Shown here piece by piece: positions 21,817-42,292 of a DNA stretch of 64,000 nt. The notes under the pieces were generated by a model that worked only from the letters and a program-made list of their open reading frames with translations, did no database searches and was not told where the DNA came from. Both the position numbers and the translations under genes were made by a program. Origin of the DNA: Minisyncoccota bacterium (lineage in GTDB: Bacteria > Patescibacteriota > Minisyncoccia > Minisyncoccales > JAQTVQ01); contig JAQTVQ010000002.1 of assembly GCA_028706715.1 (NCBI GenBank), positions 3,510 through 67,509 on the forward strand, written 5' to 3'. Within the stretch, counting starts at the first letter, position 1. The number at the start of each line of letters is the position of its first letter.

Positions 21817-22248
21817 ATGATATTGACTAAAAGTAAAAAAAGTTTCATTATCTTAGCAGGAGCCCTGTCTCTGTTTTTGTTTTTAGCGCCGAACGTATTG
21901 GCCGGAGGCCAAAACTGCCCGACCGAAGGGCTTGTTCCCTGCGGAACGGAAGGCTGTCCTTGCGAAATTTGCGATCTTTTCAAAATGATAAACGGGATTG
22001 TAAACTATATAATCACTGGCATAGTTCCTTTGATTGCCATATTGTTCGTGACTTACGGCGGATTTAAATATATTACCGCAGACGGCGATCCCGGAAAAAT
22101 AAAAGAAGCTAATGACGTTTTTACCGCCGCGATAATAGGATTGGTCATCATTTACGGCGCATGGATGGCCATAGGATTTGCTTTGAATTTAATCGGAGTC
22201 GCCGAGTGGACGGGACTGGGAAACTGGTACCAAATCAATTGCCCTTAA
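21817..22248 (+). CDS. Small secreted/membrane protein that resembles the T4SS-pilin (TrbC/VirB2-like) family reported in candidate phyla
   Basis: Signal peptide, a Cys-rich segment (CPTEGLVPCGTEGCPCEICD), then two hydrophobic helices (VPLIAILFVTYGGFKYITADGDPGKIKEAN ... IIGLVIIYGAWMAIG). Confidence 0.4.
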   Translation: MILTKSKKSFIILAGALSLFLFLAPNVLAGGQNCPTEGLVPCGTEGCPCEICDLFKMINGIVNYIITGIVPLIAILFVTYGGFKYITADGDPGKIKEANDVFTAAIIGLVIIYGAWMAIGFALNLIGVAEWTGLGNWYQINCP

Positions 22249-25461: not shown

Positions 25462-27180
25462 ATGTCAGAAGAAATCAGGGACCTCTTCCAAAGAGAAAAT
25501 ATAAAAACAATGAAAAAGGATTTGAGAAGCCTTGCGGAGTCGGAGACCCAAGAAAAAAAAGAGCAATTTTTAGGTTTGCCCCAAAAAGAAAAGGCGGCCG
25601 TTCCGACTCCTCCTGCTCCTCCTGCTCCTTTGGCGAAGGAAAACAAAAAGCCCCAAGTTCCGACTCCTCCCGCATTCAACAAGAAAGAGGATCTTCCAAA
25701 AAACGACCCGGAAGAAAGGCTGGCGGAAAAATTCGCCCAAATCAAAAAAGACCAAGAAGAAAAAGCAAAGATGATTGAAGAAAGGCAAACAAAAGACGTG
25801 GAAGAAACGGAAAAGGCGGAAAAGAAAATTACGGACGAAGAGAAAAGAAGACAGGAAGACCAAAAAGCCGAACAGAAAAAGAAAGAAGAAGAAAAAAAAG
25901 AAAAAGAAAGGCTAGACAGCGCGATCTCTTCCGCCCAAGAAAAAATTATTCAAACGGCAAACGTTCCTCCTTCGGAGAGGACTCTTTCCTCTGAAAAAAA
26001 TTCTTCTTCCTCCGCCGGCTCCGATCGGCCCGCTTCTTTTGAAGACAAATATAAAGAAGAAATAACGGAAGCTCCGAAGCTTCCGGACAAAAAAGGAGCT
26101 CCATTCTTTAGCTCTCCCGAAACAGAAAGCAAAAAAGAAGAGCCCCTTCCGGCCGCCAAAAATCCCCAAGAGCCTGTAAAAAGACCGTTAGACATTTCGG
26201 ACAAAAAAGCTTCAACTGAATTTAAGGCGCCGTTTCCTGCTCAAGAAGAGAAGAAAACGGAAGAAAAAGAAGACAGCCCCCATCAAGAACAAGACCGGGC
26301 AAAGGATAAAAGCGCCGAACCCGTTGGTGAAAAAGAAAGGATTAAGGCGCTGGAAGAAAAAGAAAAAGAAATAGACAAAGCTTTGGAGGAAAACGGCCAA
26401 AAGAAAATACCAATAAGCTTGCAGTCGGAAAAAATATCCAAAGAAATTGAAAAAATCAAGCAATCCCAGCTGCAGGGGATTTTAGCCGAAGAGAAAGAGA
26501 TAGAAGAAAGGGTGAAAGAACTGGAAGAGAGGGAAAAAACCGCTTCCTCGGCAGAAGAAAAAAGAAAAACCGAGACAGAACGGCAAGAATCTGAAAAAGC
26601 TAGAGAAGAAATTGAAGAGAAGAAATACCAAATTGAAGACAGCATTGCGAGCATGGAGTCCCAATTAAACGAATGCAAAAAAAATTCTTCTTTCATATTG
26701 GAGAGAGAGAAAAAACTGCTCAAAGAAAAAGAAAATATAAAAAACCAAAAAGAAGCCGTCGGGCTTCTGAAAAAGAAAGGAGAGCTGGAAAAATCTTTAG
26801 AGGAGCTTAGCGAAAAGACAGACTCTTTGAAAAAGAATCTTTCTTTGCTTCTAAGAGAAAAAGAAGAAAAGGAAAAGGCCTTGGAAGAAGCCGTTGAGGA
26901 AGAAGAGATTGTTGAAAGCAACCTCCGTCAAGTTGAACAGCAAGAAGAAAAAGAAAAAGACCAGGCTCTTTTAAGGAAAATAGAAGCTCAAAGAAAAGAA
27001 TTGTCTGAAAAAAGAAAAGAGAAAGAAAAAGCAAGATGGATGCTGGAAGACGAAAAAGGGGAGATAGAAAAAAAAGAAAAAGAAATTAAAAAAGAATATC
27101 AAAGAGCGGCCAAAAAAATAGAAGAAGAATCAAAAGAGATGAAGATAATTGAAGAAAAAACGAAATTTATCAATGGCTAA
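25462..27180 (+). CDS. Glu/Lys-rich low-complexity coiled-coil protein with an N-terminal Pro-rich repeat
   Basis: TPPAPPAPL / VPTPPAFN repeats, followed by ~450 aa of EK-rich heptad-like sequence. Confidence 0.4.
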   Translation: MSEEIRDLFQRENIKTMKKDLRSLAESETQEKKEQFLGLPQKEKAAVPTPPAPPAPLAKENKKPQVPTPPAFNKKEDLPKNDPEERLAEKFAQIKKDQEEKAKMIEERQTKDVEETEKAEKKITDEEKRRQEDQKAEQKKKEEEKKEKERLDSAISSAQEKIIQTANVPPSERTLSSEKNSSSSAGSDRPASFEDKYKEEITEAPKLPDKKGAPFFSSPETESKKEEPLPAAKNPQEPVKRPLDISDKKASTEFKAPFPAQEEKKTEEKEDSPHQEQDRAKDKSAEPVGEKERIKALEEKEKEIDKALEENGQKKIPISLQSEKISKEIEKIKQSQLQGILAEEKEIEERVKELEEREKTASSAEEKRKTETERQESEKAREEIEEKKYQIEDSIASMESQLNECKKNSSFILEREKKLLKEKENIKNQKEAVGLLKKKGELEKSLEELSEKTDSLKKNLSLLLREKEEKEKALEEAVEEEEIVESNLRQVEQQEEKEKDQALLRKIEAQRKELSEKRKEKEKARWMLEDEKGEIEKKEKEIKKEYQRAAKKIEEESKEMKIIEEKTKFING

Positions 27181-29251: not shown

Positions 29252-30250
29252 CTATTTCTTAAAAGAGAGCAAGGCTCCAAGCCTGTATTTGGCAAGAGGA
29301 TTGGCAGTCCCGCGGACATCAAAATGCAAATGGCATCCGGTTACGCCGATTACTCTGCCCGTATTACCGATATAACCGATGAGCTGGCCCTGGGAAACGG
29401 TTTCGCCGGCGGAAACCAAGACTTTGGACAAATGGGCATAAATAGTAACGACCCCGTTGGGATGGAGAATATTGGTATAAATTCCCAAAGGCCACTGGTT
29501 GGCAGATATTTGCACTTTCCCTCCCGCAGAAGCAAAAACGGGAGTGCCGCACTGGTTTGCAATATCAACAGCATTGTAAAAATGAAGCCTTTGGCTGATC
29601 GTTCCCGTTGTCGGGATGATAAAATATCCTTCCGGCAAGACATTCCCGGCGCTTTGAGCCAAGATCGGAGTGCTGGCCGCGGTAGGAGAAGACACTTTCC
29701 CTCCGGGAACGATAATCATATCTCCAATAATCAATTTTGAGCCTTCTTCCATTTGATTAAAGGCTATAATTTGATCTTGCTGGGCTTTGTAAGTTTTAGC
29801 TATTCCAGAAACAGTATCTTTCTCTTTAACAATATGCATTACTCCGGAAACGGGAAGAATAATCAATTTTTGCCCGGCTTTGATAAATGAGCCCTTTTTT
29901 AAATTATTGGCCCAAAGGACAGTTTCCGTGCTGATTTTAAATTTCTCCGCAATTCCCGCTAAAGTGTCTCCTTCTTTTACGGTATATTGGATAATGTCTT
30001 TTTCTTCTTTTTCTGCTTGAGCTTCTTCCCCAAAATCAGATATGCTCGCCAGCGATTGAGGCTTCACAAAAACGGGAGAGGGCACTCCTTTGAGAATAGA
30101 CCTCTCTAGAATAGTTAAATTTTGGACAGAGTCAACTGTATTTTGAGCATTTAAGAGGACGCAAGAAGCCGATTTTTCTTCTCCGCCGCTTTCCGCGCAA
30201 TGATTCTTATTGTCGGCCGCTGCCAAGCTGAAAACGGCCAAAATCCCCAA
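29252..30250 (-). CDS. LysM-domain M23 family metallopeptidase
   Basis: Two LysM repeats (YTVKEGDTLAGIAEKF ..., HIVKEKDTVSGIAKTY) and the M23 motif GCHLHFDVR. Confidence 0.8.
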   Translation of the reverse strand: MGILAVFSLAAADNKNHCAESGGEEKSASCVLLNAQNTVDSVQNLTILERSILKGVPSPVFVKPQSLASISDFGEEAQAEKEEKDIIQYTVKEGDTLAGIAEKFKISTETVLWANNLKKGSFIKAGQKLIILPVSGVMHIVKEKDTVSGIAKTYKAQQDQIIAFNQMEEGSKLIIGDMIIVPGGKVSSPTAASTPILAQSAGNVLPEGYFIIPTTGTISQRLHFYNAVDIANQCGTPVFASAGGKVQISANQWPLGIYTNILHPNGVVTIYAHLSKVLVSAGETVSQGQLIGYIGNTGRVIGVTGCHLHFDVRGTANPLAKYRLGALLSFKK

Positions 30251-30371: not shown

Positions 30372-31211
30372 ATGTCAAGCCAATTATCCACAATTAAACA
30401 AACCAAGGATCTTTTGGAAAAATACGGCCTAAGCCCCAAAAAAAGCTTCGGGCAGAATTTCTTGGTAAGAAAAGAAGAAGTTAAAAACCTGATTAATGCC
30501 GGAGAAATAAAAAAAACCGACATTGTTTTGGAAATCGGTCCGGGCATCGGAATTTTGACCAAAGAGCTGGCTAAATCAGCCCGAAAAGTAATTGCCGTAG
30601 AGAAAGATTTCCAAATGGCTAAAATCCTTGAAGAAGAGCTTTCCCTCTTGAAGATCGGCAATGTAGAAATAGTCCGAAAAGATATTTTGGATTACTTGAA
30701 AGAAGACGGTTTAAAGCTAAAAGAATATAAAGCGGCGGGAAATATTCCTTTTTACCTGACGGCTCATTTGATCAGGCTTCTTTTAGAATCTCCCAATCCT
30801 CCAAAAAATATGGCTTTCGTCCTGCAAAAAGAAGTGGGACAGCGCATTGCCAGCCTTCCGCCAAAAATGAGCCTTCTTTCGGCTTCGGTCCAATTTTACG
30901 CCAGCCCCCGATTGTGCGGATATATTAAAAAATCTTCCTTTTGGCCCTCCCCAGCGGTTGATGCGGCAATTATTAAAATCTCCCCGAAGCCCCTTGATCC
31001 AAATGTAAATCGCGATCTTTTTTTTAAAATTTTAAAAGCCGGCTTTTCCCAGCCGCGGAAGCAAATCGCCAACAACTTATCAATTTCTTTAAAAGCTGAT
31101 AAAATAGAAATCAATAACTGGCTTTTAAAAAATAACATCCAGCCTTCCCAAAGAGCAGAAACATTATCAATAGGGGATTGGATAAATTTAACAAAAACTT
31201 TCAATGATTAA
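30372..31211 (+). CDS. rsmA: 16S rRNA (adenine1518/1519-N6)-dimethyltransferase
   Basis: KKSFGQNFLV...LEIGPGIGILT. Confidence 0.85.
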   Translation: MSSQLSTIKQTKDLLEKYGLSPKKSFGQNFLVRKEEVKNLINAGEIKKTDIVLEIGPGIGILTKELAKSARKVIAVEKDFQMAKILEEELSLLKIGNVEIVRKDILDYLKEDGLKLKEYKAAGNIPFYLTAHLIRLLLESPNPPKNMAFVLQKEVGQRIASLPPKMSLLSASVQFYASPRLCGYIKKSSFWPSPAVDAAIIKISPKPLDPNVNRDLFFKILKAGFSQPRKQIANNLSISLKADKIEINNWLLKNNIQPSQRAETLSIGDWINLTKTFND

Positions 31212-33381
31212 AAAAACGGACAAGATTCTCTTTTTCTCTGCCGTTGTTTTTATCTCTTTGTTTTTTTCCGCTTCTTTTTGCTCGGCGGCTTTTGATTTGG
31301 CCACTCCCATAATTATCGGTTTTTTGCAAATTGCCTGCCAAATTGTCCTTTTTTTGACTTCAGGGATTTTAGGCCTGGCTGGAGGCTTTTTAGAAATAAT
31401 GGCCAGCCCGCAGTTTATCGCCGCCAAATTCACCAGCAACGAATTTGTGGCGCTGGGAACGAATATCACGCTAGGGTTTGCCAATATCGTCATCCTTTTG
31501 TCTCTTTTGGCCATAGGAATCGGCACGGCTTTAAGGCTGGACAAGTTTGACGCCAGGAAAAATTTTTCCAGTTTATTGATCGTTATTTTCTTGATTAATT
31601 TTTTTGCTCCTCTTTTTTGCGGATTGATTATAGACGCTTCCAATATTGTAATGAATTTTTTTATCGGTAGCGGATTTTCAGCTTCCAAGGTTCTTTCAAA
31701 CGCCTTGGCCGCCCAAGGAAATAATCTAGCATCTCACGCCAACGGACTTGCCACGATAGTTGAGCTTTTGAATCTAAAATTTCTGATGCAGACTGTCATT
31801 ATGATTGTTTTTAACCTCTCTTTAGCTATTGTCCTCTTTCTTTTCGGCCTTCTTTTCGTTATGAGATACGCCGCGCTTTGGACACTGGTCATCCTTTCTC
31901 CTTTGGCTTTTTCTTGTTATATCCTCCCTTCCACTAGAAAGATATTCAACACTTGGATGAATCAATTCGTCAACTGGTGTTTTGTGGGAGCTATTGCTTC
32001 TTTCTTTCTTTATTTGGGCCAGCAATTAATAGGCCTTATCTCTCAAGGAAACTTGGTGCTGGTTCCTCCCGGCCAAAGCTCAAACTGGTATGGGATGGAG
32101 AGCGTAATGCCATACATAGTGGCAATTATCTTCTTATTCATAGGCTTCTTCTTCTCTCTAAGCTCAAGCGCCATGGGCTCGGGAGCCGTAATCGGATACG
32201 CGCAGGGACAAACTAAAAAACTCGGTAATTGGGGCGCGAGAAGATTTATCAAAGCTCCCGCTAAAGAAGGAGGAAAGGATGCGGTAAGATCAAGGGCGAC
32301 AGAAAAAGTCGCGAAAGGAATTTCCTCTCTCGGCTCAAGCCTTTCTCCTTCTTGGGGAGAAGGAGAAAAAGGAGTCAGCGGCTGGGCGAAAAGACAAGCC
32401 GCAAAAGGCTTGGGCGTTCCGGGAAGAGCTCTCGGAGGAGCGGGAGCGGCCTTGTCTATGGAAAGAGACAAGCAGATAGGAGAGATAACCAAAAAAGCCG
32501 AAGAGATGAAAACCAAAGAGCTGAAAGGAGCTTTAAAGGGAGGCTCTCTCGGAGAAAAAGGATCTTTAAAAAACGGCTTGATCGTGGCGTCTTTCCTTAC
32601 GGATAAAGACGAAGGAAAGAACAAAGAAGCAAGAGAGAAAATAAAAGTTATGAACAAGGGAGAGATTGAAGCTATGGTTAGGGCTCTTTTGAAAGAAGGA
32701 AAGAACAAAGAGGCTGACGCAATGGGAAGAATATCTCTTCTTATGAAAAAGACTAAAGATTTAAAAGAAATAGGATTTAAGGAATTAAGCCCCGAAGAAA
32801 GAGAAAAAAACAAAGAATGGAAAAATAAATGGAGCGGCCATGCCGACAGACTGATAGACACCGCCGACATTGATACTATTAAAAAATACGGCGGAGACAT
32901 TTCAGAGTCCGAAGAGATGATGGCCTCCGCCGCCAGGCTCTGGGGACAGGGGAAAGTTAAGGCTGCAGCGGAACAATTTGAAGACAAATTTATTAAAAAA
33001 TACTGCGAAGCGGCAGACAACATAGGCTTTAAAGAAATGCTGAAAGAAAATCCCGGAGCCGTAATGTTCAGGATAAGCAGCGCCGCGCAGGATGCCGGAT
33101 TTACCCCTCCTGTCAACAATGAAGGAAAATTGATTATGAAAAAAGAAGAAGTGCAAGCGATAAGAAGAGAGATCAAAACTCAAACAGGCTCTTTTGGATT
33201 GGCCGGACCGCACGGCGAGCCGATCAGCCAATTTAAAAAATTTCAAAGCTCGTTAAAAGACGCACAGAGAGACTTGGAAAAAGAAGTAAAAAAAACGGAA
33301 GAAAAAAAAGAAAGACGGAATCCTCCAAGAGGGACGGAAACCGGACCGAAAAGAAGCGACAAGCGGCCTCCGGGGACATAA
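31204..33381 (+). CDS. Large polytopic membrane protein with a ~400-aa charged/Gly-rich C-terminal tail; possibly VirB6/TrbL-like
   Basis: Signal peptide plus at least 6 TM helices in the first ~330 aa, then a hydrophilic K/E/G-rich tail. It sits in the T4SS-like cluster. Confidence 0.35.
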   Translation: MIKKTDKILFFSAVVFISLFFSASFCSAAFDLATPIIIGFLQIACQIVLFLTSGILGLAGGFLEIMASPQFIAAKFTSNEFVALGTNITLGFANIVILLSLLAIGIGTALRLDKFDARKNFSSLLIVIFLINFFAPLFCGLIIDASNIVMNFFIGSGFSASKVLSNALAAQGNNLASHANGLATIVELLNLKFLMQTVIMIVFNLSLAIVLFLFGLLFVMRYAALWTLVILSPLAFSCYILPSTRKIFNTWMNQFVNWCFVGAIASFFLYLGQQLIGLISQGNLVLVPPGQSSNWYGMESVMPYIVAIIFLFIGFFFSLSSSAMGSGAVIGYAQGQTKKLGNWGARRFIKAPAKEGGKDAVRSRATEKVAKGISSLGSSLSPSWGEGEKGVSGWAKRQAAKGLGVPGRALGGAGAALSMERDKQIGEITKKAEEMKTKELKGALKGGSLGEKGSLKNGLIVASFLTDKDEGKNKEAREKIKVMNKGEIEAMVRALLKEGKNKEADAMGRISLLMKKTKDLKEIGFKELSPEEREKNKEWKNKWSGHADRLIDTADIDTIKKYGGDISESEEMMASAARLWGQGKVKAAAEQFEDKFIKKYCEAADNIGFKEMLKENPGAVMFRISSAAQDAGFTPPVNNEGKLIMKKEEVQAIRREIKTQTGSFGLAGPHGEPISQFKKFQSSLKDAQRDLEKEVKKTEEKKERRNPPRGTETGPKRSDKRPPGT

Positions 33382-33415: not shown

Positions 33416-34384
33416 TTATTTGCTCTTTTTCTTTTCTGAAGCTGAAGACACCACTCTTTCAACCATTTGAGACAATCCCGGAACGACCGTCAAGCTGGCA
33501 GAAAGAGGACTTTTTTCCGCGGCCTCAAACATTCGGATAAACTTTCCGTCCTCTCCATGTTTCAGTATTGTATCATACACCTTCTCAATTCTTCCTGCTT
33601 CGGCTTCGGCCAATGCGGAAATGCCGGCGGCTTCATGTTCTTTGGTTCTTTTCGTTAATGTCACTTCCCGATATGAAGCCGGGGGATCAATTTCCTTTGA
33701 TTGCAGAGACTTGACGTCTACCCCATACTCCTTAAACTGCTCAAAAAATTTGCGCTGGGATAAAATTTCCATAAAGGTTTTGTCCAGCTCAAATTTTTTT
33801 TGATCATTTTCTCCTACCATCTCTTCATAGGAATATTCTCCTATGATGTCTTTAATCGCCGGGCCGGCTTTTACGATCGTTAATTCTAGGGAATTTTCTG
33901 CATTAAAGAGCCATTTGTAAACGTTTGACGGAGCGGCAGTCATTATCATTGTAAAATCCAAGGGGACTGAATTTTTATCTTCAGCCTCTTGGATCTTGAA
34001 AGCATAATAGTCGTCTTCAAGAAGGACATAGTCTTGCCATCTTTCTTCGTGAATTTCTATGTTCCCTTCATTGTCCAAAGTAGCCCATCTGAATTTATGG
34101 GCATATATTTTATCAAACGGATAAAATCCTACCCATCGCAAGCCTCCGAAGAAATCCCAAAAGCTTCTTTGTTCTCCTTCTACAACATTCCACTCCAAAT
34201 CAAAAGTTCTTCCTCTCCATGACATCAAGCACTTCTTAAACTTTTTTCCTCTGACGACCACTTTTGCCGTTCCTTCGTCAACAAAGGTAAAACAAATGTT
34301 ATTCGGCGCCAGATAGAACCAAATAAGACAGATAAAGAAAAAAAATATCGCAGCCAATAAGAGCAAAAATATTATTAAATCCAT
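33416..34384 (-). CDS. Membrane-anchored SPFH/band-7-like protein
   Basis: N-terminal TM helix, then a region that resembles SPFH (GVDVKSLQSKEIDPP ... AEAEAGRIEKV). Confidence 0.4.
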   Translation of the reverse strand: MDLIIFLLLLAAIFFFFICLIWFYLAPNNICFTFVDEGTAKVVVRGKKFKKCLMSWRGRTFDLEWNVVEGEQRSFWDFFGGLRWVGFYPFDKIYAHKFRWATLDNEGNIEIHEERWQDYVLLEDDYYAFKIQEAEDKNSVPLDFTMIMTAAPSNVYKWLFNAENSLELTIVKAGPAIKDIIGEYSYEEMVGENDQKKFELDKTFMEILSQRKFFEQFKEYGVDVKSLQSKEIDPPASYREVTLTKRTKEHEAAGISALAEAEAGRIEKVYDTILKHGEDGKFIRMFEAAEKSPLSASLTVVPGLSQMVERVVSSASEKKKSK

Positions 34385-35099: not shown

Positions 35100-35516
35100 A
35101 TGCAATTTCAAGTTCCTCAATTCATTGAAAAAGAAACAGGTTTTTTAGGGCCTCTGACAATTCGGCAAACCGTTATTTTCTCCGTTGCGGCGGGAGCTGT
35201 TCTTTTTGCATGGATATTTTTCGGCAAATCCAATTTTATGATTTTTTTAATGCTTTCCGTCCTCTTTGTCTCCGGAGCCGCAGCTCTTTCTTTTTTAAAA
35301 GTAAACGGCCTTAACCTAACAATCGTCTTAAAAAACTTCCTGTCTTTTTTTTCAGCTTCCAAGCTTTATCTTTGGCAAAGAAAAGAAATCACCGTTTATT
35401 GCGAAAAAAAGGCTTCCGCCCCGTTGAAGAAAGAACCGGAAAAAGAATCTCCTTTAAAAATCAGCGGAGCAAGCAAAATAAAAGACTTAAATAAAAAAAT
35501 AGAATTTGGAGGATAG
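35100..35516 (+). CDS. PrgI/VirB3-like small membrane protein of the Gram-positive-type T4SS
   Basis: MQFQVPQFIEKETGFLGPLTIRQ followed by two TM helices. Positioned immediately upstream of VirB4. Confidence 0.45.
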   Translation: MQFQVPQFIEKETGFLGPLTIRQTVIFSVAAGAVLFAWIFFGKSNFMIFLMLSVLFVSGAAALSFLKVNGLNLTIVLKNFLSFFSASKLYLWQRKEITVYCEKKASAPLKKEPEKESPLKISGASKIKDLNKKIEFGG

Positions 35517-35519
35517 CTT

Positions 35520-36164
35520 ATGCCAAAATCGTCAACTCAACAATTTTTACCGATAGATCAAATCAGAGAGGGAGTGGCAGTAATGAAAGACAAGTCGCTA
35601 AGGGGAATTTTGCTTGTTTCTTCTTTAAATTTCGCTTTAAAATCAGACGAAGAGCAAACGGCTATAATTTATCAGTTCCAAGATTTTTTAAACTCTTTAG
35701 ACTTTTCCTGCCAAATATTGGCGCAGTCCAGGAAACTTAATATCACCGGGTATCTTGAAAAGCTTAAAGAAATTGAATCAAGGCAAGAAAACGACCTGTT
35801 AAAAACGCAGACCGTTGAATACAGAAAATTTATAGAAAAAATAATCAGCAGCGGATCAATTATGGCTAAAAACTTTTATGTGGTTGTGCCTTATTATCCT
35901 CTGATTGAAATACCGGGAGTGGCCGGAAACGCCGAAAAAAACGCCAAAGCGTCCAAAAAAGACTTAACCGAAGAAAAGTTCCAACGGGGGAAATACCAGC
36001 TTTGGCAAAGAATGGAATATGTCGTTCTAGGATTAAGGCGATGCGGCTTGAGAGCAAGCCCCTTAAGCACTCCCGAGATTATAGAAATTCTTTGGTCTTC
36101 CCATCATCCAAAAGAAGCGGAGTCGGGATACTATCCCGAACTGCCTCCTGAAATGCTGGTTTAA
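35520..36164 (+). CDS. VirB4/TrbE-family ATPase, N-terminal domain, encoded as a separate ORF
   Basis: QQFLPIDQIREGVAVMKDKSLRGILLVSSLNFALKSDEEQTAIIYQFQDFLNSLDF matches the VirB4 N-terminal region. The stop at 36162..36164 is followed 13 nt later by the ATG of the ATPase ORF, in another frame. Confidence 0.55.
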   Translation: MPKSSTQQFLPIDQIREGVAVMKDKSLRGILLVSSLNFALKSDEEQTAIIYQFQDFLNSLDFSCQILAQSRKLNITGYLEKLKEIESRQENDLLKTQTVEYRKFIEKIISSGSIMAKNFYVVVPYYPLIEIPGVAGNAEKNAKASKKDLTEEKFQRGKYQLWQRMEYVVLGLRRCGLRASPLSTPEIIEILWSSHHPKEAESGYYPELPPEMLV

Positions 36165-36177
36165 TTTTTACAAAACA

Positions 36178-37947
36178 ATGAACTTTTTTAAAAAAAACCA
36201 ACCGGAAAAACTCTTTGAAGCGGAGCATATGGACGCCAAAGATATAATCGCCCCCGCTTCCATAGAAATAAAACAAAACTCAATCAAGCTCGGCGAAAAA
36301 TTGGCCAAGACTTATTTTGTTTTTTCTTACCCGAGATATCTTACCACCGGATGGCTTTCTCCCATTATTAACTTGGACATACCTTTAGATATTTCTTTCT
36401 TCTTTCATCCCATGGAAACGGCGGACACTTTAAAAAAATTGAGACGAAAAGTTACCGAAATCCAAGTGGAAATAATCAGAAACGAAGAAAAGGGAAGAGT
36501 AAGAGACCCTTCTTTGGAAACAGCCTATAATGATTTGGAAAACTTGCGCGACAGTCTTCAGACCGCGCAAGAAAAAATGTTTAAATTCGGACTCTATATT
36601 ACCGTCTATGCCGACAGCGACTCCCAGCTTAACGATATTGAAACAACATTAAGATCTGTTTTAGAGTCGCGTCTAATATATTTGAAACCCGCCCTTTACC
36701 AGCAGAAAGAAGGCTTTCTTTCCGTTTCGCCTTACGCTATGGACAAGTTACAAGTCCATACAAGCATCAACACAGGGCCGCTATCTTCCGTTTTTCCTTT
36801 TGTTTCTTTTGACCTTAGCTCCAATGAAGGAATCTTATACGGGATGAACAAACACAACAGTTCTTTGGTCCTTTTTGACCGTTTTACTTTGGAGAACGCC
36901 AATATGGTAATTTTCGCCAAGTCCGGCTCCGGAAAATCTTATGCGGTCAAGCTTGAGATTTTAAGATCTCTAATGATGGGAGTGGAAGGCATTATTGTTG
37001 ATCCGGAAAACGAATATGAAATGCTGGCCGATGCCGTCGGAGGATCATTCTTCAAAATCTCTTTAAGCTCGGACAGCCACATCAACCCTTTTGATCTTCC
37101 CGTTCCCAGGGAAGATGAAGATCCCGAAGACGTTTTAAGGTCAAATATCATCAATTTGGTGGGATTGGTCAGGCTGATGCTTGGAGGATTAAATCCTGAA
37201 GAAGACGCAATCATTGATCGCGCCTTGGCCGAAACTTATGCCGCCAAAGATATCACTCCCGACTCCGATCCAAGCACATGGAAGGAAAAAACTCCCATTA
37301 TGTCGGATTTGGAATCGGTTTTGGAAACCATGGAAGGGGCAGATTCTCTTGTCCAAAGAATAAGAAAGTTCACTCAAGGAACTTTTGCCTCTTTTTTCAA
37401 CCAGCAATCAAACATTTCCATGGACAAATCTTTGGTCGTTTTCGGCATCAGAGACATGGAAGACGAATTAAGGCCGATGGCAATGTTTATTATTATGCGA
37501 TACATTTGGAATGAAATCAGGGCGGAGCTGAAAAAAAGGCTGCTGGTAATAGACGAAGCATGGTGGCTGATGCAGTCCGAAGACGGAGCTTCTTTTCTGT
37601 ACGGGATAGCAAAACGCGCGCGCAAATATTGGCTGGGAGTAACAACCATTACGCAGGACGTCTCCGATTTTATGAAATCTTCCTACGGCAAACCGATTAT
37701 TACCAACTCTTCTCTCCAAATACTCCTTAAGCAAAGCCCTGCCACCGTTGATATCCTGCAGCAAACATTCAACCTTACGGATCAAGAAAAATTCCTGCTT
37801 TTGGAGACGCCGGTGGGAGAGGGAATCTTTTTTGCCGGAATGAAGCATGTTTCCATTAAAATAGTCGCTTCTTATACTGAAGATCAAATCATCACTTCCA
37901 GTCCCGAACAGATATTAAAGATAAAAGAGGCTAAAAACAATCTTTAG
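36178..37947 (+). CDS. VirB4/TrbE/CagE-family T4SS ATPase (central and C-terminal ATPase part)
   Basis: Walker A VIFAKSGSGKSYAV, Walker B LLVIDEAWWL, and the family-typical region ...FVFSYPRYLTTGWLSPI. Confidence 0.75.
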   Translation: MNFFKKNQPEKLFEAEHMDAKDIIAPASIEIKQNSIKLGEKLAKTYFVFSYPRYLTTGWLSPIINLDIPLDISFFFHPMETADTLKKLRRKVTEIQVEIIRNEEKGRVRDPSLETAYNDLENLRDSLQTAQEKMFKFGLYITVYADSDSQLNDIETTLRSVLESRLIYLKPALYQQKEGFLSVSPYAMDKLQVHTSINTGPLSSVFPFVSFDLSSNEGILYGMNKHNSSLVLFDRFTLENANMVIFAKSGSGKSYAVKLEILRSLMMGVEGIIVDPENEYEMLADAVGGSFFKISLSSDSHINPFDLPVPREDEDPEDVLRSNIINLVGLVRLMLGGLNPEEDAIIDRALAETYAAKDITPDSDPSTWKEKTPIMSDLESVLETMEGADSLVQRIRKFTQGTFASFFNQQSNISMDKSLVVFGIRDMEDELRPMAMFIIMRYIWNEIRAELKKRLLVIDEAWWLMQSEDGASFLYGIAKRARKYWLGVTTITQDVSDFMKSSYGKPIITNSSLQILLKQSPATVDILQQTFNLTDQEKFLLLETPVGEGIFFAGMKHVSIKIVASYTEDQIITSSPEQILKIKEAKNNL

Positions 37948-37960
37948 TTTTTATTAAAAA

Positions 37961-38371
37961 ATGGCAGAAGAAATTAAAACAGAAGCGGAAGAAGGAAGCA
38001 AAGGAAATTTTCTAGCTTTTACGACTCCCGAAGGAATGGTAATGATGACTTCCGCGGTGATGGTGGATGTTTCGGGATTCTTTGGGTTTCCTTGGCTTTT
38101 TATTCCGGATCTATTTTTCGGATTTTGGCTGATGATGAGAGGAAGCGTAAAGTCTGCAGAGAATGGGCAAGAGCCAGTAAAAAAGCAAGAGAGAGGACAA
38201 GAGAAAAATAAAAAGCCTTCCGCTCCGCCGAAAGCGGGGAAAAGAGCAAAAAAAGTCAGACGGATTAAGTGGCTTAGGGTAGTTGTTTTTATCGGAGAGC
38301 TGATTCCCGTTATTAACATTTTGCCTCTTTGGATCATCCTTGTTTTTTCAGAATTGTTTTATAACAGCTAA
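37961..38371 (+). CDS. Small membrane protein with a basic linker
   Basis: Two hydrophobic segments separated by a K/R/E-rich stretch. Confidence 0.3.
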   Translation: MAEEIKTEAEEGSKGNFLAFTTPEGMVMMTSAVMVDVSGFFGFPWLFIPDLFFGFWLMMRGSVKSAENGQEPVKKQERGQEKNKKPSAPPKAGKRAKKVRRIKWLRVVVFIGELIPVINILPLWIILVFSELFYNS

Positions 38372-38374
38372 AAA

Positions 38375-40033
38375 ATGAAAAGAATCAAAAAATCTTTAAA
38401 GGTTTTCTTTATCTCCTGCTTTTTTGCCGGCTTTTTATTTTTTTATGTCGCCAACGCCAACGACCTTGAAATATCTTATCCTCCCATGCCGCAAGTGGAA
38501 GCTCCGACAACGACCGAAAGCAGCTTGGAAAATTATATAAAATATTTTTTTAATTTCGCCTTCTCTGCGGCAGGACTCGTCTTGCTTGCCGCTCTTATCC
38601 AAGGAGGCCTTTCTTATCTTTCTTCGGCTGGGAACGCCGCCAAAACAAAACTGGCAAAAGAAAGGATCGTCTCCGGATTTTTGGGAGTAGCCGTTATTCT
38701 TTGTTCTTGGCTCCTTTTGTATGCGCTAAACCCGCGAATAGCCTTTTTTTCTTTTGATAAAGCCCCTGTTTCCGTTTCAATTACAGTGCCTCCGGAAGAA
38801 AAAACGGACAGCAAAAGAACTTTCTTGCAAATACCTCTCGGCGTTTTAGTTGAAAAAGCTTTAACGGGCAACGAAGCCCAAATTAAACTTGACAGCGTAA
38901 AAGGACAAAATGAAGAACTGAAAGAAAAAGCAAAAAAGCTCAAAGAGCTGAATGAAGAACTGAAAGACCTCGCTCTTTCTTGCGACTGCGGCAATTCCAC
39001 CTGCGGAAGCACAGCCGATAACTGCAAAGGAAGCGGATATGGATGCCAAATTAGCTGCGACCAAAACGCGATTAACGCAAAGATAGATGAAATAAATGTA
39101 TTTATAGAAAATCTCAAATCCTTCCAAAAAGATTACTTTGTCTCTACCAGGTGGGATTTTGATGACGGCAGAAACGAATTAAAAATAGCCGCTTCTCTCT
39201 TAACGGGCGCCTGCGACTCTCCCGTAATGACTCAAAACGATATGATGGAAGCCTCTGCGATGATAGGCCGGGACGGCCTTGAGATTAAAACTTTGAGCGG
39301 ATGGCCAAGCAATAAAATCGTCTTTGACGGAAAGACAATAGACGATCCCATTACCTTCTACTGCGAGCATCCGGATATTGACAGCGCGCTGGGGTCAACC
39401 GCTTTTGAAGACATACTTGAAATAGTCGCCATAGAAGATTATCCGGACATCGCAAGCGATCAAGCTCCGGGAAACGCCGCTCCTCCCGCAGGGAGCCAAG
39501 ATTACAGAATAAGAGACAACCAAAATAATTATCCTTATCTAAGCCAAGGAGATTCCAAAACACAATGCATTAGGTGGGTAGGATGCGGACCGACTTCTTT
39601 GGCTACCGTAATAAGATACTTCGATCCTTCAGCAACGACAACGGCAGAAAGCTTGGCAAGAGAGTTTGAATCACAGGGAAGCTTCTATTATTGTTCCTGT
39701 CTAAGTAAATCATGCTCGGGAGGAATAACCTCCGCGGCTTCCGCCTCCAGCTATGTCAGCTCAAAATACAACATCCAGTATGAAAGGCTGGCAAGAGATC
39801 CGCAAACCGTAAAAAACGAGATATTAAAAAATCGGCCGGTATTAATCGCCAGCTGCGTTTTTGGCCCTTACGCCAAATATGGAGGACATCTTTTGGTAAT
39901 TAATGGAGTAAATTATACCGGAGAGACGATAAATTATTTTTACGTTATGGATCCGTGCCACTATAACTACACCACCATCAGCTTGAAAGACCTTAGCAAG
40001 TGCGGAGCTTATATTTACAGTTTTTCTAAATAA
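38375..40033 (+). CDS. Secreted/membrane protein: T4SS-pilin-like N-terminal domain fused to a C-terminal C39-like (papain-fold) cysteine peptidase domain
   Basis: The N-terminal module (signal peptide, then SYPPMP..., TM helix, SSAGNAAKTKLAKERIVSGFLGVAVILCSWLLLYALNP) is paralogous to the N-domain of 40893..42254. The C-terminus carries the C39 catalytic signatures CGPTSLATVIRYF ... NRPVLIAS ... GGHLLVINGV...YFYVMDP. Confidence 0.5.
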   Translation: MKRIKKSLKVFFISCFFAGFLFFYVANANDLEISYPPMPQVEAPTTTESSLENYIKYFFNFAFSAAGLVLLAALIQGGLSYLSSAGNAAKTKLAKERIVSGFLGVAVILCSWLLLYALNPRIAFFSFDKAPVSVSITVPPEEKTDSKRTFLQIPLGVLVEKALTGNEAQIKLDSVKGQNEELKEKAKKLKELNEELKDLALSCDCGNSTCGSTADNCKGSGYGCQISCDQNAINAKIDEINVFIENLKSFQKDYFVSTRWDFDDGRNELKIAASLLTGACDSPVMTQNDMMEASAMIGRDGLEIKTLSGWPSNKIVFDGKTIDDPITFYCEHPDIDSALGSTAFEDILEIVAIEDYPDIASDQAPGNAAPPAGSQDYRIRDNQNNYPYLSQGDSKTQCIRWVGCGPTSLATVIRYFDPSATTTAESLAREFESQGSFYYCSCLSKSCSGGITSAASASSYVSSKYNIQYERLARDPQTVKNEILKNRPVLIASCVFGPYAKYGGHLLVINGVNYTGETINYFYVMDPCHYNYTTISLKDLSKCGAYIYSFSK

Positions 40034-40036
40034 AAT

Positions 40037-40870
40037 ATGAAAAGAGCAACAAAAATATTTTTTATTTTCGCAACGATCTCCGTTTTTTCTTTAACCGCTA
40101 ATCTTTTTTTGCACAAAGCAAAAGCGGAAGAGAACACAAGTAGCGAGCCTCTTTCCTGCAACCAGGAAATACCGATAGGGGAGATAATAGAAGAGACGGT
40201 CGGCTTTATGGGAGGAGTAAGAAGCGACGCAATAGGCCTGCAATCTTTGTTAAAACAAGAGATTTCGGCTTCCCAAGAATTAATCTTGTCTGTGCAGTCT
40301 TGCGACATCGGCAATTGCTCTCCCTCGTGCGATCTCAAAAGTTATTCCGTATCAGACGGACAAGGAGGAGCGCAAGTTTTCTCTTACTGTGAAGCCAATA
40401 ACTGCAACGGACAAATTTGCCCTGAAAGCAAAATATCCTCCGATTTTGCCAAAGTAAAATCTATTTATGAAGAAATTGAACAAGCCCAAGAATCGGCAGA
40501 AAAAGCTATTACAAAAAAAGATTTTTCTTTTTCAATAAAGCCCTATGTCAACCCTCTTCTTCCTTTTCCCGTAGGACTTTATCCAGAAATAACGAATAAG
40601 ACAAAATCTGAAGCAATCCAAGCAAAGCTTGACGCATCTAGAGGCCTTTTTGACTCCTGCTTCTCAACCCCCCAAGAATGGCAAGAAGTTCTAGAAGGGA
40701 AAAAAATCGGCAAGGTTCTTCTTTCTTGCAGAGAGAGTCTTGATTTTGCAAAAGACGACTTGAGCCAAGAATGCAAAGACTCCTGCCTAAACGATCCTAA
40801 AGGAGAAAAATGTACCGAATGCTTGGGATGCAAAAGCGCCGGCAATTTTTTCTGCTGCACTACAAAATAA
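40037..40870 (+). CDS. Secreted Cys-rich protein of unknown function
   Basis: Signal peptide and ~20 cysteines including CCTTK at the C-terminus. Same operon as the pilin-like genes. Confidence 0.35.
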   Translation: MKRATKIFFIFATISVFSLTANLFLHKAKAEENTSSEPLSCNQEIPIGEIIEETVGFMGGVRSDAIGLQSLLKQEISASQELILSVQSCDIGNCSPSCDLKSYSVSDGQGGAQVFSYCEANNCNGQICPESKISSDFAKVKSIYEEIEQAQESAEKAITKKDFSFSIKPYVNPLLPFPVGLYPEITNKTKSEAIQAKLDASRGLFDSCFSTPQEWQEVLEGKKIGKVLLSCRESLDFAKDDLSQECKDSCLNDPKGEKCTECLGCKSAGNFFCCTTK

Positions 40871-40892
40871 GAAATTAAGAAATAAACGATAT

Positions 40893-42254
40893 ATGAAAAA
40901 AATAAAACAACCGTCGGCCGTATTAACATTTTTGGTTTTGATGGGGCTGTCCTCGGCCGGAATCTGCTCCGCGGCGCTTGAATTGGCGTATCCTCCTTTG
41001 GGAAGCATCCAGCTTCCTGCCAACCCGTCTTTGGTGGAATATCTAAGGTATATCTTCGCTTTTACGGTGTTGGTATCCGGCATTATCGCTTTTGGGATGA
41101 CTGTTTCCAGCGGTATCAAGTGGCTGACTTCCGCCGGGAACGTAAGCAAAACATCAGCGGCAAAAGAAGAAATGTTTTCTTCTTTTTTGGGTATTGTTAT
41201 CGTCCTTTGCTCTTGGCTGGTTCTAAACACAATAAACCCGCAGTTGACCGCTTTCAATATTTCTCCCATACAAAAAGAAGGAGTTACCGTGACTCTGGCC
41301 AATGCCAATCCAAACGACAACCTAAGAACATACGCATCTTCTGTCAGCAAGCTAGAAGAAATCAGCCATATTGATTTTGATAAAACAAAAATAGACGTTT
41401 ACTTTTATCCCGAAGAAAACTGGAAAGAAACAAGCTCTAAAAAGACCAAGGCGTTGCCGGGAGACGTAAAAGACAGCCCAAAATCAATGGAAATAGTATG
41501 GAAAACCCCGGGAGTTCAGCTTTGTTACGTCCAAGACGGAAAAGACATTTGCGATTCCTATAACTACAACACTCCCGGCTTCGGAGAAAACGACAACAAA
41601 TACACAAAAATAAAAATTATTGATGAAAGAGGCCAAGGTGGAGATGTTGTTGTAAAATATATAGCTATCGTCTTTGAAGAAGACAATTATAAGGTGGGAG
41701 GACTGGAAATATACAAGTCGCCGGACTCTTCCGGCCAATCAGGCTCCGCATGGCCCCCGCCGCAACAACAGCAAAGCACCGCATATACCAGTCCTTTGCA
41801 GTATCCGACGACACAGCAGGGTTTTAGCAGCGCCGCGACACTAGATCTGACAGCCTATGAAGAGGACATAGACAACGGATGGGCTTCTTCAATAAAAATA
41901 TATACTTATAAGCCCAATGGAGACAATAATGGAAGAGTTGACTTGTATTCCGCCATAGAGTTCGGAGGAGAAAGCTGGGGGACAGACAGCGAAGCAACGG
42001 TAAACTTGCAGTCCGTTAATTCTTCTTTAAGCCAAAACGTTTGGTCCGTCAGTATCTCGGGGAACAGAGTTGTTGTTTTTTGCGAAAATGAAAACTGCGG
42101 AGACACAAAAAATAACAAGTGCCAAATTATTGAAGCTACCGACGCCAACTTAAATGACCAATGGATAGGGAGGTGCCAATCTCATTGGTATAACATTTGG
42201 CAAAAAAACGAACCGTGTATGAAATGCGCGGACATTAGAATCTTCAACAAATAA
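40893..42254 (+). CDS. Secreted/membrane protein: T4SS-pilin-like N-terminal domain plus a large Cys-containing ectodomain
   Basis: LAYPPLGS..., TM helix, TSAGNVSKTSAAKEEMFSSFLGIVIVLCSWLVLNTINP is paralogous to 38375..40033. A Gln-rich linker (PPPQQQQS) follows. Confidence 0.45.
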   Translation: MKKIKQPSAVLTFLVLMGLSSAGICSAALELAYPPLGSIQLPANPSLVEYLRYIFAFTVLVSGIIAFGMTVSSGIKWLTSAGNVSKTSAAKEEMFSSFLGIVIVLCSWLVLNTINPQLTAFNISPIQKEGVTVTLANANPNDNLRTYASSVSKLEEISHIDFDKTKIDVYFYPEENWKETSSKKTKALPGDVKDSPKSMEIVWKTPGVQLCYVQDGKDICDSYNYNTPGFGENDNKYTKIKIIDERGQGGDVVVKYIAIVFEEDNYKVGGLEIYKSPDSSGQSGSAWPPPQQQQSTAYTSPLQYPTTQQGFSSAATLDLTAYEEDIDNGWASSIKIYTYKPNGDNNGRVDLYSAIEFGGESWGTDSEATVNLQSVNSSLSQNVWSVSISGNRVVVFCENENCGDTKNNKCQIIEATDANLNDQWIGRCQSHWYNIWQKNEPCMKCADIRIFNK

Positions 42255-42261
42255 GAAAAAC

Positions 42262-42292
42262 AAAAACGGACCTTTTAAGGTCCGTTTTTTTA
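42262..42292. terminator. Bidirectional intrinsic terminator between the pilin-like operon (+) and jag (-)
   Basis: ACGGACC-TTTTAA-GGTCCGT hairpin, flanked by an A-run upstream and a T-run downstream. Confidence 0.7.

Follow-up and report, generated by a model that had tools for sequence, protein, structure and literature searches.

Long VirB2-like pilins with a C39_2 peptidase domain and predicted crystallin-fold domains in a chromosomal type IV secretion operon of a Candidatus Paceibacterota bacterium

Epibiotic growth of Patescibacteria requires their type IV secretion system (T4SS), as shown in Saccharibacteria (PMC10633639), and the role of this system was described as 'completely unknown' in a 2024 perspective (PMC11665869). 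The VirB2-like pilins of these bacteria, grouped in PF18895, begin with a signal peptide and have two hydrophobic helices connected by a short basic loop (PMC10633639; PMC12102498), and their loci combine VirB4, PrgI, and VirB6-like genes near dnaA with several divergent pilin paralogues per locus. Surveys treat these pilins as small and report few VirB1-type hydrolases near virB4 (PMC12102498). In the pilin array of Southlakia epibionticum, for instance, the genes measure 312–558 nt (~103–185 aa). Here, we analyze a stretch of 64,000 nucleotides (the window) from contig JAQTVQ010000002.1 of assembly GCA_028706715.1, positions 3,510 to 67,509 of the forward strand, in which three consecutive genes, referred to as A, B, and C, close a T4SS operon that lies on the chromosome near oriC in a Candidatus Paceibacterota bacterium, an ultrasmall organism belonging to the Candidate Phyla Radiation (CPR). 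A and C resemble the described pilins in all the features listed above and lie in a locus of the same kind, but they extend into ectodomains of 430 and 330 aa, respectively, which in A comprise a stalk and a Peptidase_C39_2 domain, and in C two domains modeled as β/γ-crystallin folds. B, encoded between them, is a Cys-rich secreted protein.

Parallels to A are found in monoderm T4SSs, which need a dedicated membrane-anchored wall hydrolase, often with a papain-clan peptidase, e.g., PrgK or CwlT (PMC12102498). A resembles these enzymes (PrgK of pCF10, CwlT of ICEBs1, TcpG, and TrsG/CD419) in being operon-encoded, with an N-terminal anchor and predicted extracytoplasmic catalysis. VirB1 analogues often contain a papain-clan cysteine peptidase (CHAP or NlpC/P60); A has C39_2 instead of SLT, CHAP, or NlpC/P60. 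Unlike VirB1 analogues, A is anchored by a complete pilin rather than a plain transmembrane helix, has a novel stalk, and is accompanied by a separate partner, B. The C39 and C39_2 peptidases of clan CA, such as the leader peptidase domains of ComA and PCAT1 and the B. anthracis structure 3erv, share the fold and the Gln/Cys/His/Asp set of A. However, A is not fused to an ABC exporter, and its catalytic domain is predicted to be extracytoplasmic. The minor or tip pilins of type IV pili and type II secretion systems (T2SSs) that have bulky C-terminal domains, e.g., CofB, GspK, and ComZ, and VirB5 at the tip of the T-pilus are alike in concept only, combining a pilin-like anchor with a functional head able to occupy a filament tip or to nucleate assembly; CofB, GspK, and ComZ differ from A and C in having an unrelated pilin fold assembled by the type IV pilus/T2SS machinery rather than by a T4SS. 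Neither the stalk nor B showed a resemblance to VirB5 in sequence or fold, although no structure comparison aimed at VirB5 was made. Finally, microbial β/γ-crystallins such as Protein S, spherulin 3a, and comparable domains of secreted proteins have two Greek-key domains, as C is predicted to have, but C is fused to a T4SS pilin and scores below the Pfam threshold.

The Patescibacteria T4SS, its location near dnaA, and its arrays of VirB2-like pilins are already published, and PF18895 and PF13529 are existing families. Proteins identical to A, B, and C, from metagenome-assembled genomes (MAGs) of Candidatus Paceibacterota, are named 'C39 family peptidase', 'hypothetical protein', and 'pilin' at NCBI, the names of A and C reflecting one domain each. 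The initial annotation of the window regarded the arrangement as not a textbook one, and the literature searched mentions neither pilins extended at the C-terminus by an enzyme or a crystallin fold, nor the A-B-C triad, nor the stalk domain; the arrangement is, however, not rare, since A and C belong to a large family of long pilins described below.

The pilin module of A and C consists of a Sec signal peptide, an LExxYP segment, a first transmembrane helix (TM1), a short Lys-rich loop (S-A-G-N...K...AKE), and a second transmembrane helix (TM2) ending in (L/I)NP. The three open reading frames (ORFs) lie where the initial annotation had placed them, and its proposal of a common, pilin-like N-terminal module followed by unrelated C-termini is borne out. 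Residues 31–150 of A and 29–147 of C are 35% identical over 123 aa (BLASTP E 1e-24), and a phmmer search over all ORFs of the window recovers the similarity of the two modules at 5e-24, whereas outside the N-terminal module BLASTP detects no significant similarity between A and C. PF18895 (T4SS_pilin; curated cut-off 26.6 bits) matches residues 49–118 of A with 29.4 bits and residues 47–114 of C with 32.3 bits. Short pilins of 85–172 aa share the motifs of the module and end 1–50 residues past INP, and a hidden Markov model (HMM) built from these short pilins alone scores A at 1e-33 and C at 3e-38. Thus, A and C each contain a complete VirB2-type pilin that is not degenerate, with further domains added at its C-terminus. 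A and C share with VirB2/TrbC-like pilins the signal peptide, the two hydrophobic helices, the basic loop, and the company of VirB4, VirB3, and VirB6 genes; since mature A has ~524 aa and mature C ~425 aa, far from a small single-domain pilin of ~7–15 kDa, we liken them to VirB2 pilins without counting them as plain members. Both the positive-inside rule and the many Cys of the ectodomains suggest that the latter are extracytoplasmic, facing outward. The sole other ORF of the window matching the pilin module (phmmer/hmmsearch) encodes a short pilin (21817–22248), 14 kb away from the operon, whose mature N-terminus is Cys-rich (CPTEGLVPCGTEGCPCEIC) and whose sequence ends in ...INCP.

Past the pilin module, A continues into a region that we call the 'IPxG / Cys-knob' stalk, a long helical hairpin round a CxCGxSxC...C...C cluster, preceded by a (Q/E)IP(L/I)G motif. 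The stalk has no match in Pfam, and a profile search of the PDB gave chance matches only (the eL40 zinc ribbon and designed coiled coils); as modeled, it appears to be a new helical, disulfide-knotted domain. In the C-terminal domain, PF13529 (Peptidase_C39_2; cut-off 24) matches residues 385–527 with 51.6 bits and an E-value of 1.9e-13, covering profile positions 2–142 of 143. The C39/papain signatures quoted by the initial annotation contain the predicted catalytic residues (Cys404 in GCGPTS, His505 in GGHLLV, and Asp526 in VMDP), and its expectation of a papain-like domain with an aligned Cys and His is confirmed: the catalytic Cys, His, and Asp align with those of 6mpz, a solved double-glycine C39 protease (profile E 7.7e-7), and also with 3erv. 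Gln391, Cys404, and His505 are invariant in seven homologues, Gln391 being the likely oxyanion residue, while Asp526 is conserved except for an Asn in one homologue. By this residue pattern, the C39_2 domain is predicted to be catalytically intact. It has a papain-like fold, with staphopain, streptopain, IdeS, and a C39-like effector of a type VI secretion system (T6SS) among the structural neighbours of A. These structural comparisons use the AlphaFold2 (AF2) model of A, which was calculated from a 7-sequence alignment, has a mean predicted local distance difference test (pLDDT) score of 57, falling below 55 in the pilin region, and was used for the C39 domain only. No match to PF03412 (Peptidase_C39) was found in A at E <= 0.1, nor any ABC domain, and the C39_2 domain lies past TM2 of a Sec-exported pilin. 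A thus combines a gene in a T4SS operon, a membrane anchor, and a putative extracytoplasmic catalytic domain, as VirB1/PrgK/CwlT-type enzymes do. As the Pfam scan revealed no recognised peptidoglycan-hydrolase domain (SLT/lysozyme, CHAP, or NlpC/P60) in A, C39_2 standing alone, we liken A to VirB1-type enzymes rather than calling it one of them.

The ectodomain of C is of an entirely different kind. The initial annotation had described a Gln-rich linker and a Cys-containing domain, and the linker is indeed present (residues 280–317), but a generic Cys-rich domain is not: the ectodomain contains only 8 Cys, and the AF2 model (15-sequence alignment, mean pLDDT 71.5, both ectodomains at 80–91) predicts two β/γ-crystallin folds joined by that linker. 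Foldseek aligns C to two-domain γ- and β-crystallins over ~250 columns at E 3e-6, with target-normalised TM-scores of 0.66–0.71; the matches as a whole range over E-values of 3e-6 to 1e-3 and TM-scores of 0.6–0.71. The ectodomain itself gives no match to PF00030 (Crystall; cut-off 25) at E <= 1; its homologues P0276, P0183, and P0223 score 30.6, 23.7, and 17.9 bits, respectively.

B, a protein of 277 aa with a signal peptide and 16 Cys, was correctly seen as Cys-rich and secreted by the initial annotation, but is probably more than a product of a gene interposed between A and C. Neither Pfam nor NCBIfam returned a match for B, and an orthologue is 36% identical (E 6e-55). A comparison with hhalign of B to a 13-sequence profile of the A stalk gave a probability of 84.9% (E 6.5e-6) over ~100 residues, in which the IPxG motif and the Cys knob are each followed by a helix. 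With BLAST, B and A gave no significant pairwise match (E 0.48), and a first, narrower profile comparison was marginal (47.7%). The N-terminal half of B is therefore probably a free-standing paralogue of the A stalk, followed by a Cys-rich C-terminal part of its own that ends in FFCC. Domains similar to B are found at the C-terminus or in the interior of the pilin-stalk proteins P0260, P0217, P0178, P0233, and P0204, i.e., fused to the kind of protein that B accompanies here.

The T4SS context proposed initially holds as well. The operon reads PrgI, TrsD-like, VirB4, a protein with two transmembrane helices, A, B, and C, with intergenic gaps of 3–22 nt from PrgI to C. It is followed on its 3′ side by jag, yidC, rnpA, and rpmH, and then dnaA, and preceded on its 5′ side by a VirB6/TrbL-like gene and an SPFH gene on the opposite strand. 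The locus is a Patescibacteria T4SS near oriC, resembling mating-pair-formation class FATA (MPF-FATA), as in Quinonero-Coronel et al. 2025 (PMC12102498). The full gene order, including A-B-C beside jag/yidC/rnpA/dnaA, is kept in six further loci on five other contigs, with A orthologues of 37–73% identity. Every syntenic locus has a B orthologue, and a C orthologue as well, save that the sequence of L004 stops inside the gene after B. A pattern-based contig scan was restrictive and returned 5 loci.

How far the long-pilin design extends was surveyed with a profile of the pilin module. At E <= 1e-3, the exhaustive search retrieved 61,242 representative proteins, of which 10,736 also passed E <= 1e-10; the long-pilin census covers the 145 newly returned proteins among the best 150 of the 61,242. 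A word-indexed homologue search found seven relatives each for A and C, and with the pilin profile it gave short pilins only, so it was not used for the census. The initial annotation had called for a survey of similar fusions, and such fusions abound among these best representatives: in 97 of the 145, a single pilin module at the N-terminus is continued by 100 or more residues. A C-like ectodomain occurs in 63 of the 145, an A-type stalk in 21, a B-type domain in 9, and C39 in 3, while Pfam assigns SLT to 7, SLT_3 to 1, NlpC/P60 to 2, Peptidase_C39_2 to 3, and β/γ-crystallin to 7 of the same proteins.

Several of these relatives keep the scaffold of A and differ in the head. P0165 consists of a pilin, a stalk with 30% identity to that of A (E 6e-24), and an SLT_3 lysozyme-like domain. 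In P0246 and P0204, the pilin and stalk (with a B-like domain in P0204) precede NlpC/P60, and in P0175, P0203, and P0257 they precede C39_2, with P0175 and P0257 also matching PF03412 (Peptidase_C39). P0260, P0217, P0178, and P0233 combine a pilin with a stalk-like region and a B domain. As judged from these architectures, C39_2 is shown to be interchangeable with two bona fide peptidoglycan-hydrolase domains, SLT_3 and NlpC/P60, on the pilin-stalk scaffold. The swap extends to the operon: at locus L012, the gene after that of the SLT_3-headed protein encodes a B homologue (E 7e-16) with the IPIGE start and NFFCC end in common with B, and the next gene begins with a pilin N-terminus (E 5e-4), which makes an A-B-C triad with a lysozyme-like head replacing the peptidase.

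Further variants of the family were observed alongside these proteins. At locus L009 (3548–9277), from a Saccharibacteria-labelled MAG, PrgI, TrsD-like, VirB4, and a small transmembrane protein are followed by four long pilins of 661, 356, 387, and 491 aa, which suggests that the long-pilin design reaches beyond Paceibacteria. Tandem 'polypilins' contain 2–11 T4SS_pilin modules per polypeptide, as in P0180 (1147 aa), P0135 (891 aa), and ~40 others; P0180, with 11 modules, matches PF18895 at E 7e-80 and TrbC at E 1e-42. Such proteins would need processing, or would reflect another use of the hairpin. P0014 (474 aa) has the order opposite to that of A and C, with its pilin module at the C-terminus (267–363) after ~260 N-terminal residues lacking an assigned domain.

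From the head swap to SLT_3 and NlpC/P60 and the triad kept in L012, we favour, with modest confidence, the reading that A is a pilin-anchored cell-envelope (wall) hydrolase of the T4SS, acting with the partner protein B and the adhesin-like long pilin C. In this mechanism, the pilin hairpin would insert in the membrane and dock the ectodomains at the VirB3/VirB4/VirB6 pilin-handling platform, and it may also permit sparse or tip incorporation into the fibre of the short pilin. The hydrolase would be placed where the machine crosses its own wall and reaches the wall of the host, as a functional counterpart of VirB1, CwlT, or PrgK; B would likely bind or extend the A stalk, and C would likely supply an adhesive head, possibly stabilised by Ca2+. 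For endolysins from phages of Gram-positive bacteria, Peptidase_C39_2 is counted as one of the catalytic domains (PMC8223927). In S. epibionticum, essential multi-domain wall hydrolases adjoin virB4 (Table S2 of PMC10633639; PMC12102498), the first with two lysozyme domains and a cysteine proteinase, the second with a domain of Hedgehog/DD-peptidase fold that matches best, in structure, proteins annotated Peptidase M15B and M23 (Table S2 of PMC10633639); A is similarly located, one small gene away from virB4. The idea of an enzyme that remodels the wall or the host surface, already raised by the initial annotation, is thus supported in part and indirectly, through the SLT_3 and NlpC/P60 heads on the A scaffold and the L012 triad. 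Several points weigh against it. Peptidoglycan hydrolysis is not established for the C39_2 family, and the closest solved sequence relatives are double-glycine leader peptidases. The model of A is poor overall (mean pLDDT 57; pilin region below 55), and the homology of B to the stalk is probable rather than certain (84.9%). Docking of the hairpin to the T4SS platform and its entry into a pilus are conjectural. No pilus has been seen for this system. The LysM + Peptidase_M23 gene at 29252–30250, in the conserved neighbourhood, could already supply wall hydrolysis. In addition, the census profile was built from long pilins, and its figures do not tell how common long forms are across the family.

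The same proteins could instead be effectors displayed on the pilus, A and C being minor or tip subunits polymerised with the short pilin, the C39-like domain cleaving host surface proteins, and C acting as an adhesin. The pilin module of A and C is undegenerate and indistinguishable from short pilins, flexible linkers follow TM2 in both proteins, C has an adhesin-type fold, and the secreted proteases staphopain, streptopain, and IdeS, together with the T6SS C39-like effector, are structural neighbours of A. Both pilin termini reportedly lie on the outer surface in solved conjugative pili, as Costa et al. are said to have found in 2016, so that C-terminal cargo would point outward. In solved conjugative pili, however, the rise per pentameric layer is ~12 Å, and 35–45 kDa of cargo on every subunit therefore cannot pack in a VirB2-type helix, leaving sparse or tip incorporation only. 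The heads swapped onto the A scaffold are moreover wall hydrolases (SLT_3 and NlpC/P60) rather than proteases, and no pilus has been observed for this system; on balance, we consider display on the pilus unlikely. Clearly less probable still is a maturation protease that processes pilin precursors, B, or T4SS substrates in the manner of C39 leader peptidases or of TraF acting on TrbC. The best sequence match of A among solved structures is the double-glycine leader protease 6mpz, the relatives P0175 and P0257 also match PF03412, and the enzyme shares an operon with possible substrates. Yet A, B, C, and the short pilin show neither a Gly-Gly-type leader nor a conserved cleavage motif, and Gly-Gly leader processing by A was rejected on this ground. 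The C39 domain of classical leader peptidases is a cytoplasmic, N-terminal part of an ABC exporter and cleaves double-glycine leaders, whereas that of A is predicted to be extracytoplasmic, and the interchange with lysozyme-like and NlpC/P60 heads would be left unexplained.

Alternatively, the pilin could serve as an export carrier or pro-domain that does no more than direct the polypeptide to the membrane or machine. A cut near INP would then set free the ectodomain, a soluble enzyme in A and a lectin-like protein in C, and leave the pilin part to the pilin pool. Removal of a C-terminal extension is known for conjugative pilins (RP4 TrbC) and provides a precedent; variable low-complexity linkers come after the N-P that invariably closes TM2, and the tandem pilins of 2–11 modules would need processing to single pilins. 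This scenario has a small chance of being correct, given that no conserved cleavage motif follows INP(Q/R)L and that short pilins bear the INP motif without any cargo. An annotation or assembly artefact, in which separate pilin and peptidase genes were merged wrongly into one ORF, has a negligible probability and no observation in its favour: the architecture is uninterrupted in independent JGI, ENA, Logan, and NCBI assemblies at 37–99% identity, on which ground a mis-merged ORF was rejected, and long architectures recur in the 97 census proteins noted above.

A broader view, which goes beyond the anchored wall hydrolase and which we hold as doubtful, is that the CPR VirB2-type filament or stub is a modular 'tool-holder', whose cargo pilins at the tip or base bind the host bacterium and breach its envelope. 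The cargo would, just as tentatively, comprise wall hydrolases (C39_2, lysozyme-like, and NlpC/P60), crystallin-fold adhesins, and Cys-knob stalks. If true, such a device would account for the essential function long sought for the T4SS of Patescibacteria, and A and its relatives would be the first known enzymes covalently displayed on a conjugative-type pilus. Short of that, the analysis shows that many Patescibacteria pilins have a long form with interchangeable wall-hydrolase or crystallin-fold heads, that a putative hydrolase-pilin, a Cys-rich partner, and a second long pilin make up a conserved operon unit, and that a new stalk domain recurs among these proteins. These proteins offer concrete, testable candidates for wall crossing and host contact by the T4SS, extend the range of what a conjugative-type pilin can be, and would account for the apparently missing VirB1 in most Patescibacteria classes.

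Table 1. Features of the T4SS locus and of proteins A and C, in positions of the window.
Feature	Position	Strand	Basis and remarks
Gene A	38375..40033	+	552 aa; ORF, Pfam, 7 full-length homologues (37–99% identity)
A pilin module, residues 29–125	38459..38749	+	LExxYP motif, TM1, basic loop SSAGNAAKTKLAKE, TM2 ending LNP
A 'IPxG / Cys-knob' stalk, residues 140–345	38792..39409	+	Helices 155–201, 230–258, 263–279 (model)
A Peptidase_C39_2 papain-like domain, residues 385–552	39527..40030	+	Cys404 (39584–39586), His505 (39887–39889), Asp526 (39950–39952)
Gene B	40037..40870	+	277 aa; Sec-secreted, 16 Cys, C-terminus GNFFCC
Gene C	40893..42254	+	453 aa; long pilin; ORF, PF18895, orthologues in syntenic loci
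C pilin module, residues 29–120	40977..41252	+	Pfam; AF2 helices 47–79, 84–114; hydrophobic segments
C first β/γ-crystallin-like domain (predicted), residues 130–279	41280..41729	+	pLDDT 80–89; Foldseek
C disordered Gln/Pro-rich linker, residues 280–317	41730..41843	+	pLDDT 29–44; sequence
C second β/γ-crystallin-like domain (predicted), residues 320–453	41850..42251	+	pLDDT 84–91; Foldseek; homologues with Crystall here
PrgI (VirB3-like)	35100..35516	+	PF12666 E 3.7e-8
TrsD/TraC-like, resembles stand-alone VirB4 N-terminal domain	35520..36164	+	NCBIfam VirB4_plasma N-terminal part E 1.5e-9; TrsD 4e-4; orthologues PF26593 TraC-like
VirB4-type ATPase	36178..37947	+	PF19044, AAA_10, CagE_TrbE_VirB
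Conserved protein with two transmembrane helices and variable charged loop	37961..38371	+	Alignment across 6 loci including Saccharibacteria-labelled L009
Extended VirB6/TrbL-like polytopic membrane protein	31204..33381	+	Weak PF04610; orthologues match PF19590 TrbL_3
Short pilin, candidate major pilin	21817..22248	+	143 aa; PF18895 E 4.7e-10; TrbC E 1.2e-4
LysM + Peptidase_M23 gene	29252-30250	-	Just upstream of rsmA + TrbL-like gene
SPFH/Band_7 gene	33416-34384	-	Between VirB6-like gene and PrgI operon
Bidirectional terminator hairpin	42262..42289	.	Perfect 12-bp stem; closes operon

Some neighbouring features deserve mention (Table 1). The protein with two transmembrane helices encoded at 37961–38371 has no family match in Pfam or NCBIfam, is encoded in every case between virB4 and the leading long pilin, Saccharibacteria-labelled L009 included, and may be a dedicated partner of long pilins. 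The LysM + Peptidase_M23 gene is kept in three syntenic loci (L001, L005, and L006) and represents a second candidate wall hydrolase of the T4SS neighbourhood. A 572-aa protein without a Pfam match, encoded on the forward strand at 25462–27180, is extremely rich in Glu and Lys, either coiled-coil or of low complexity. Five of the six syntenic loci have the SPFH/Band_7 gene in the same place; L003, the remaining one, starts downstream of that position. The hairpin at 42262–42289 has T-runs on both strands and forms a common terminator of the T4SS operon and the convergent jag-yidC-rnpA-rpmH operon.

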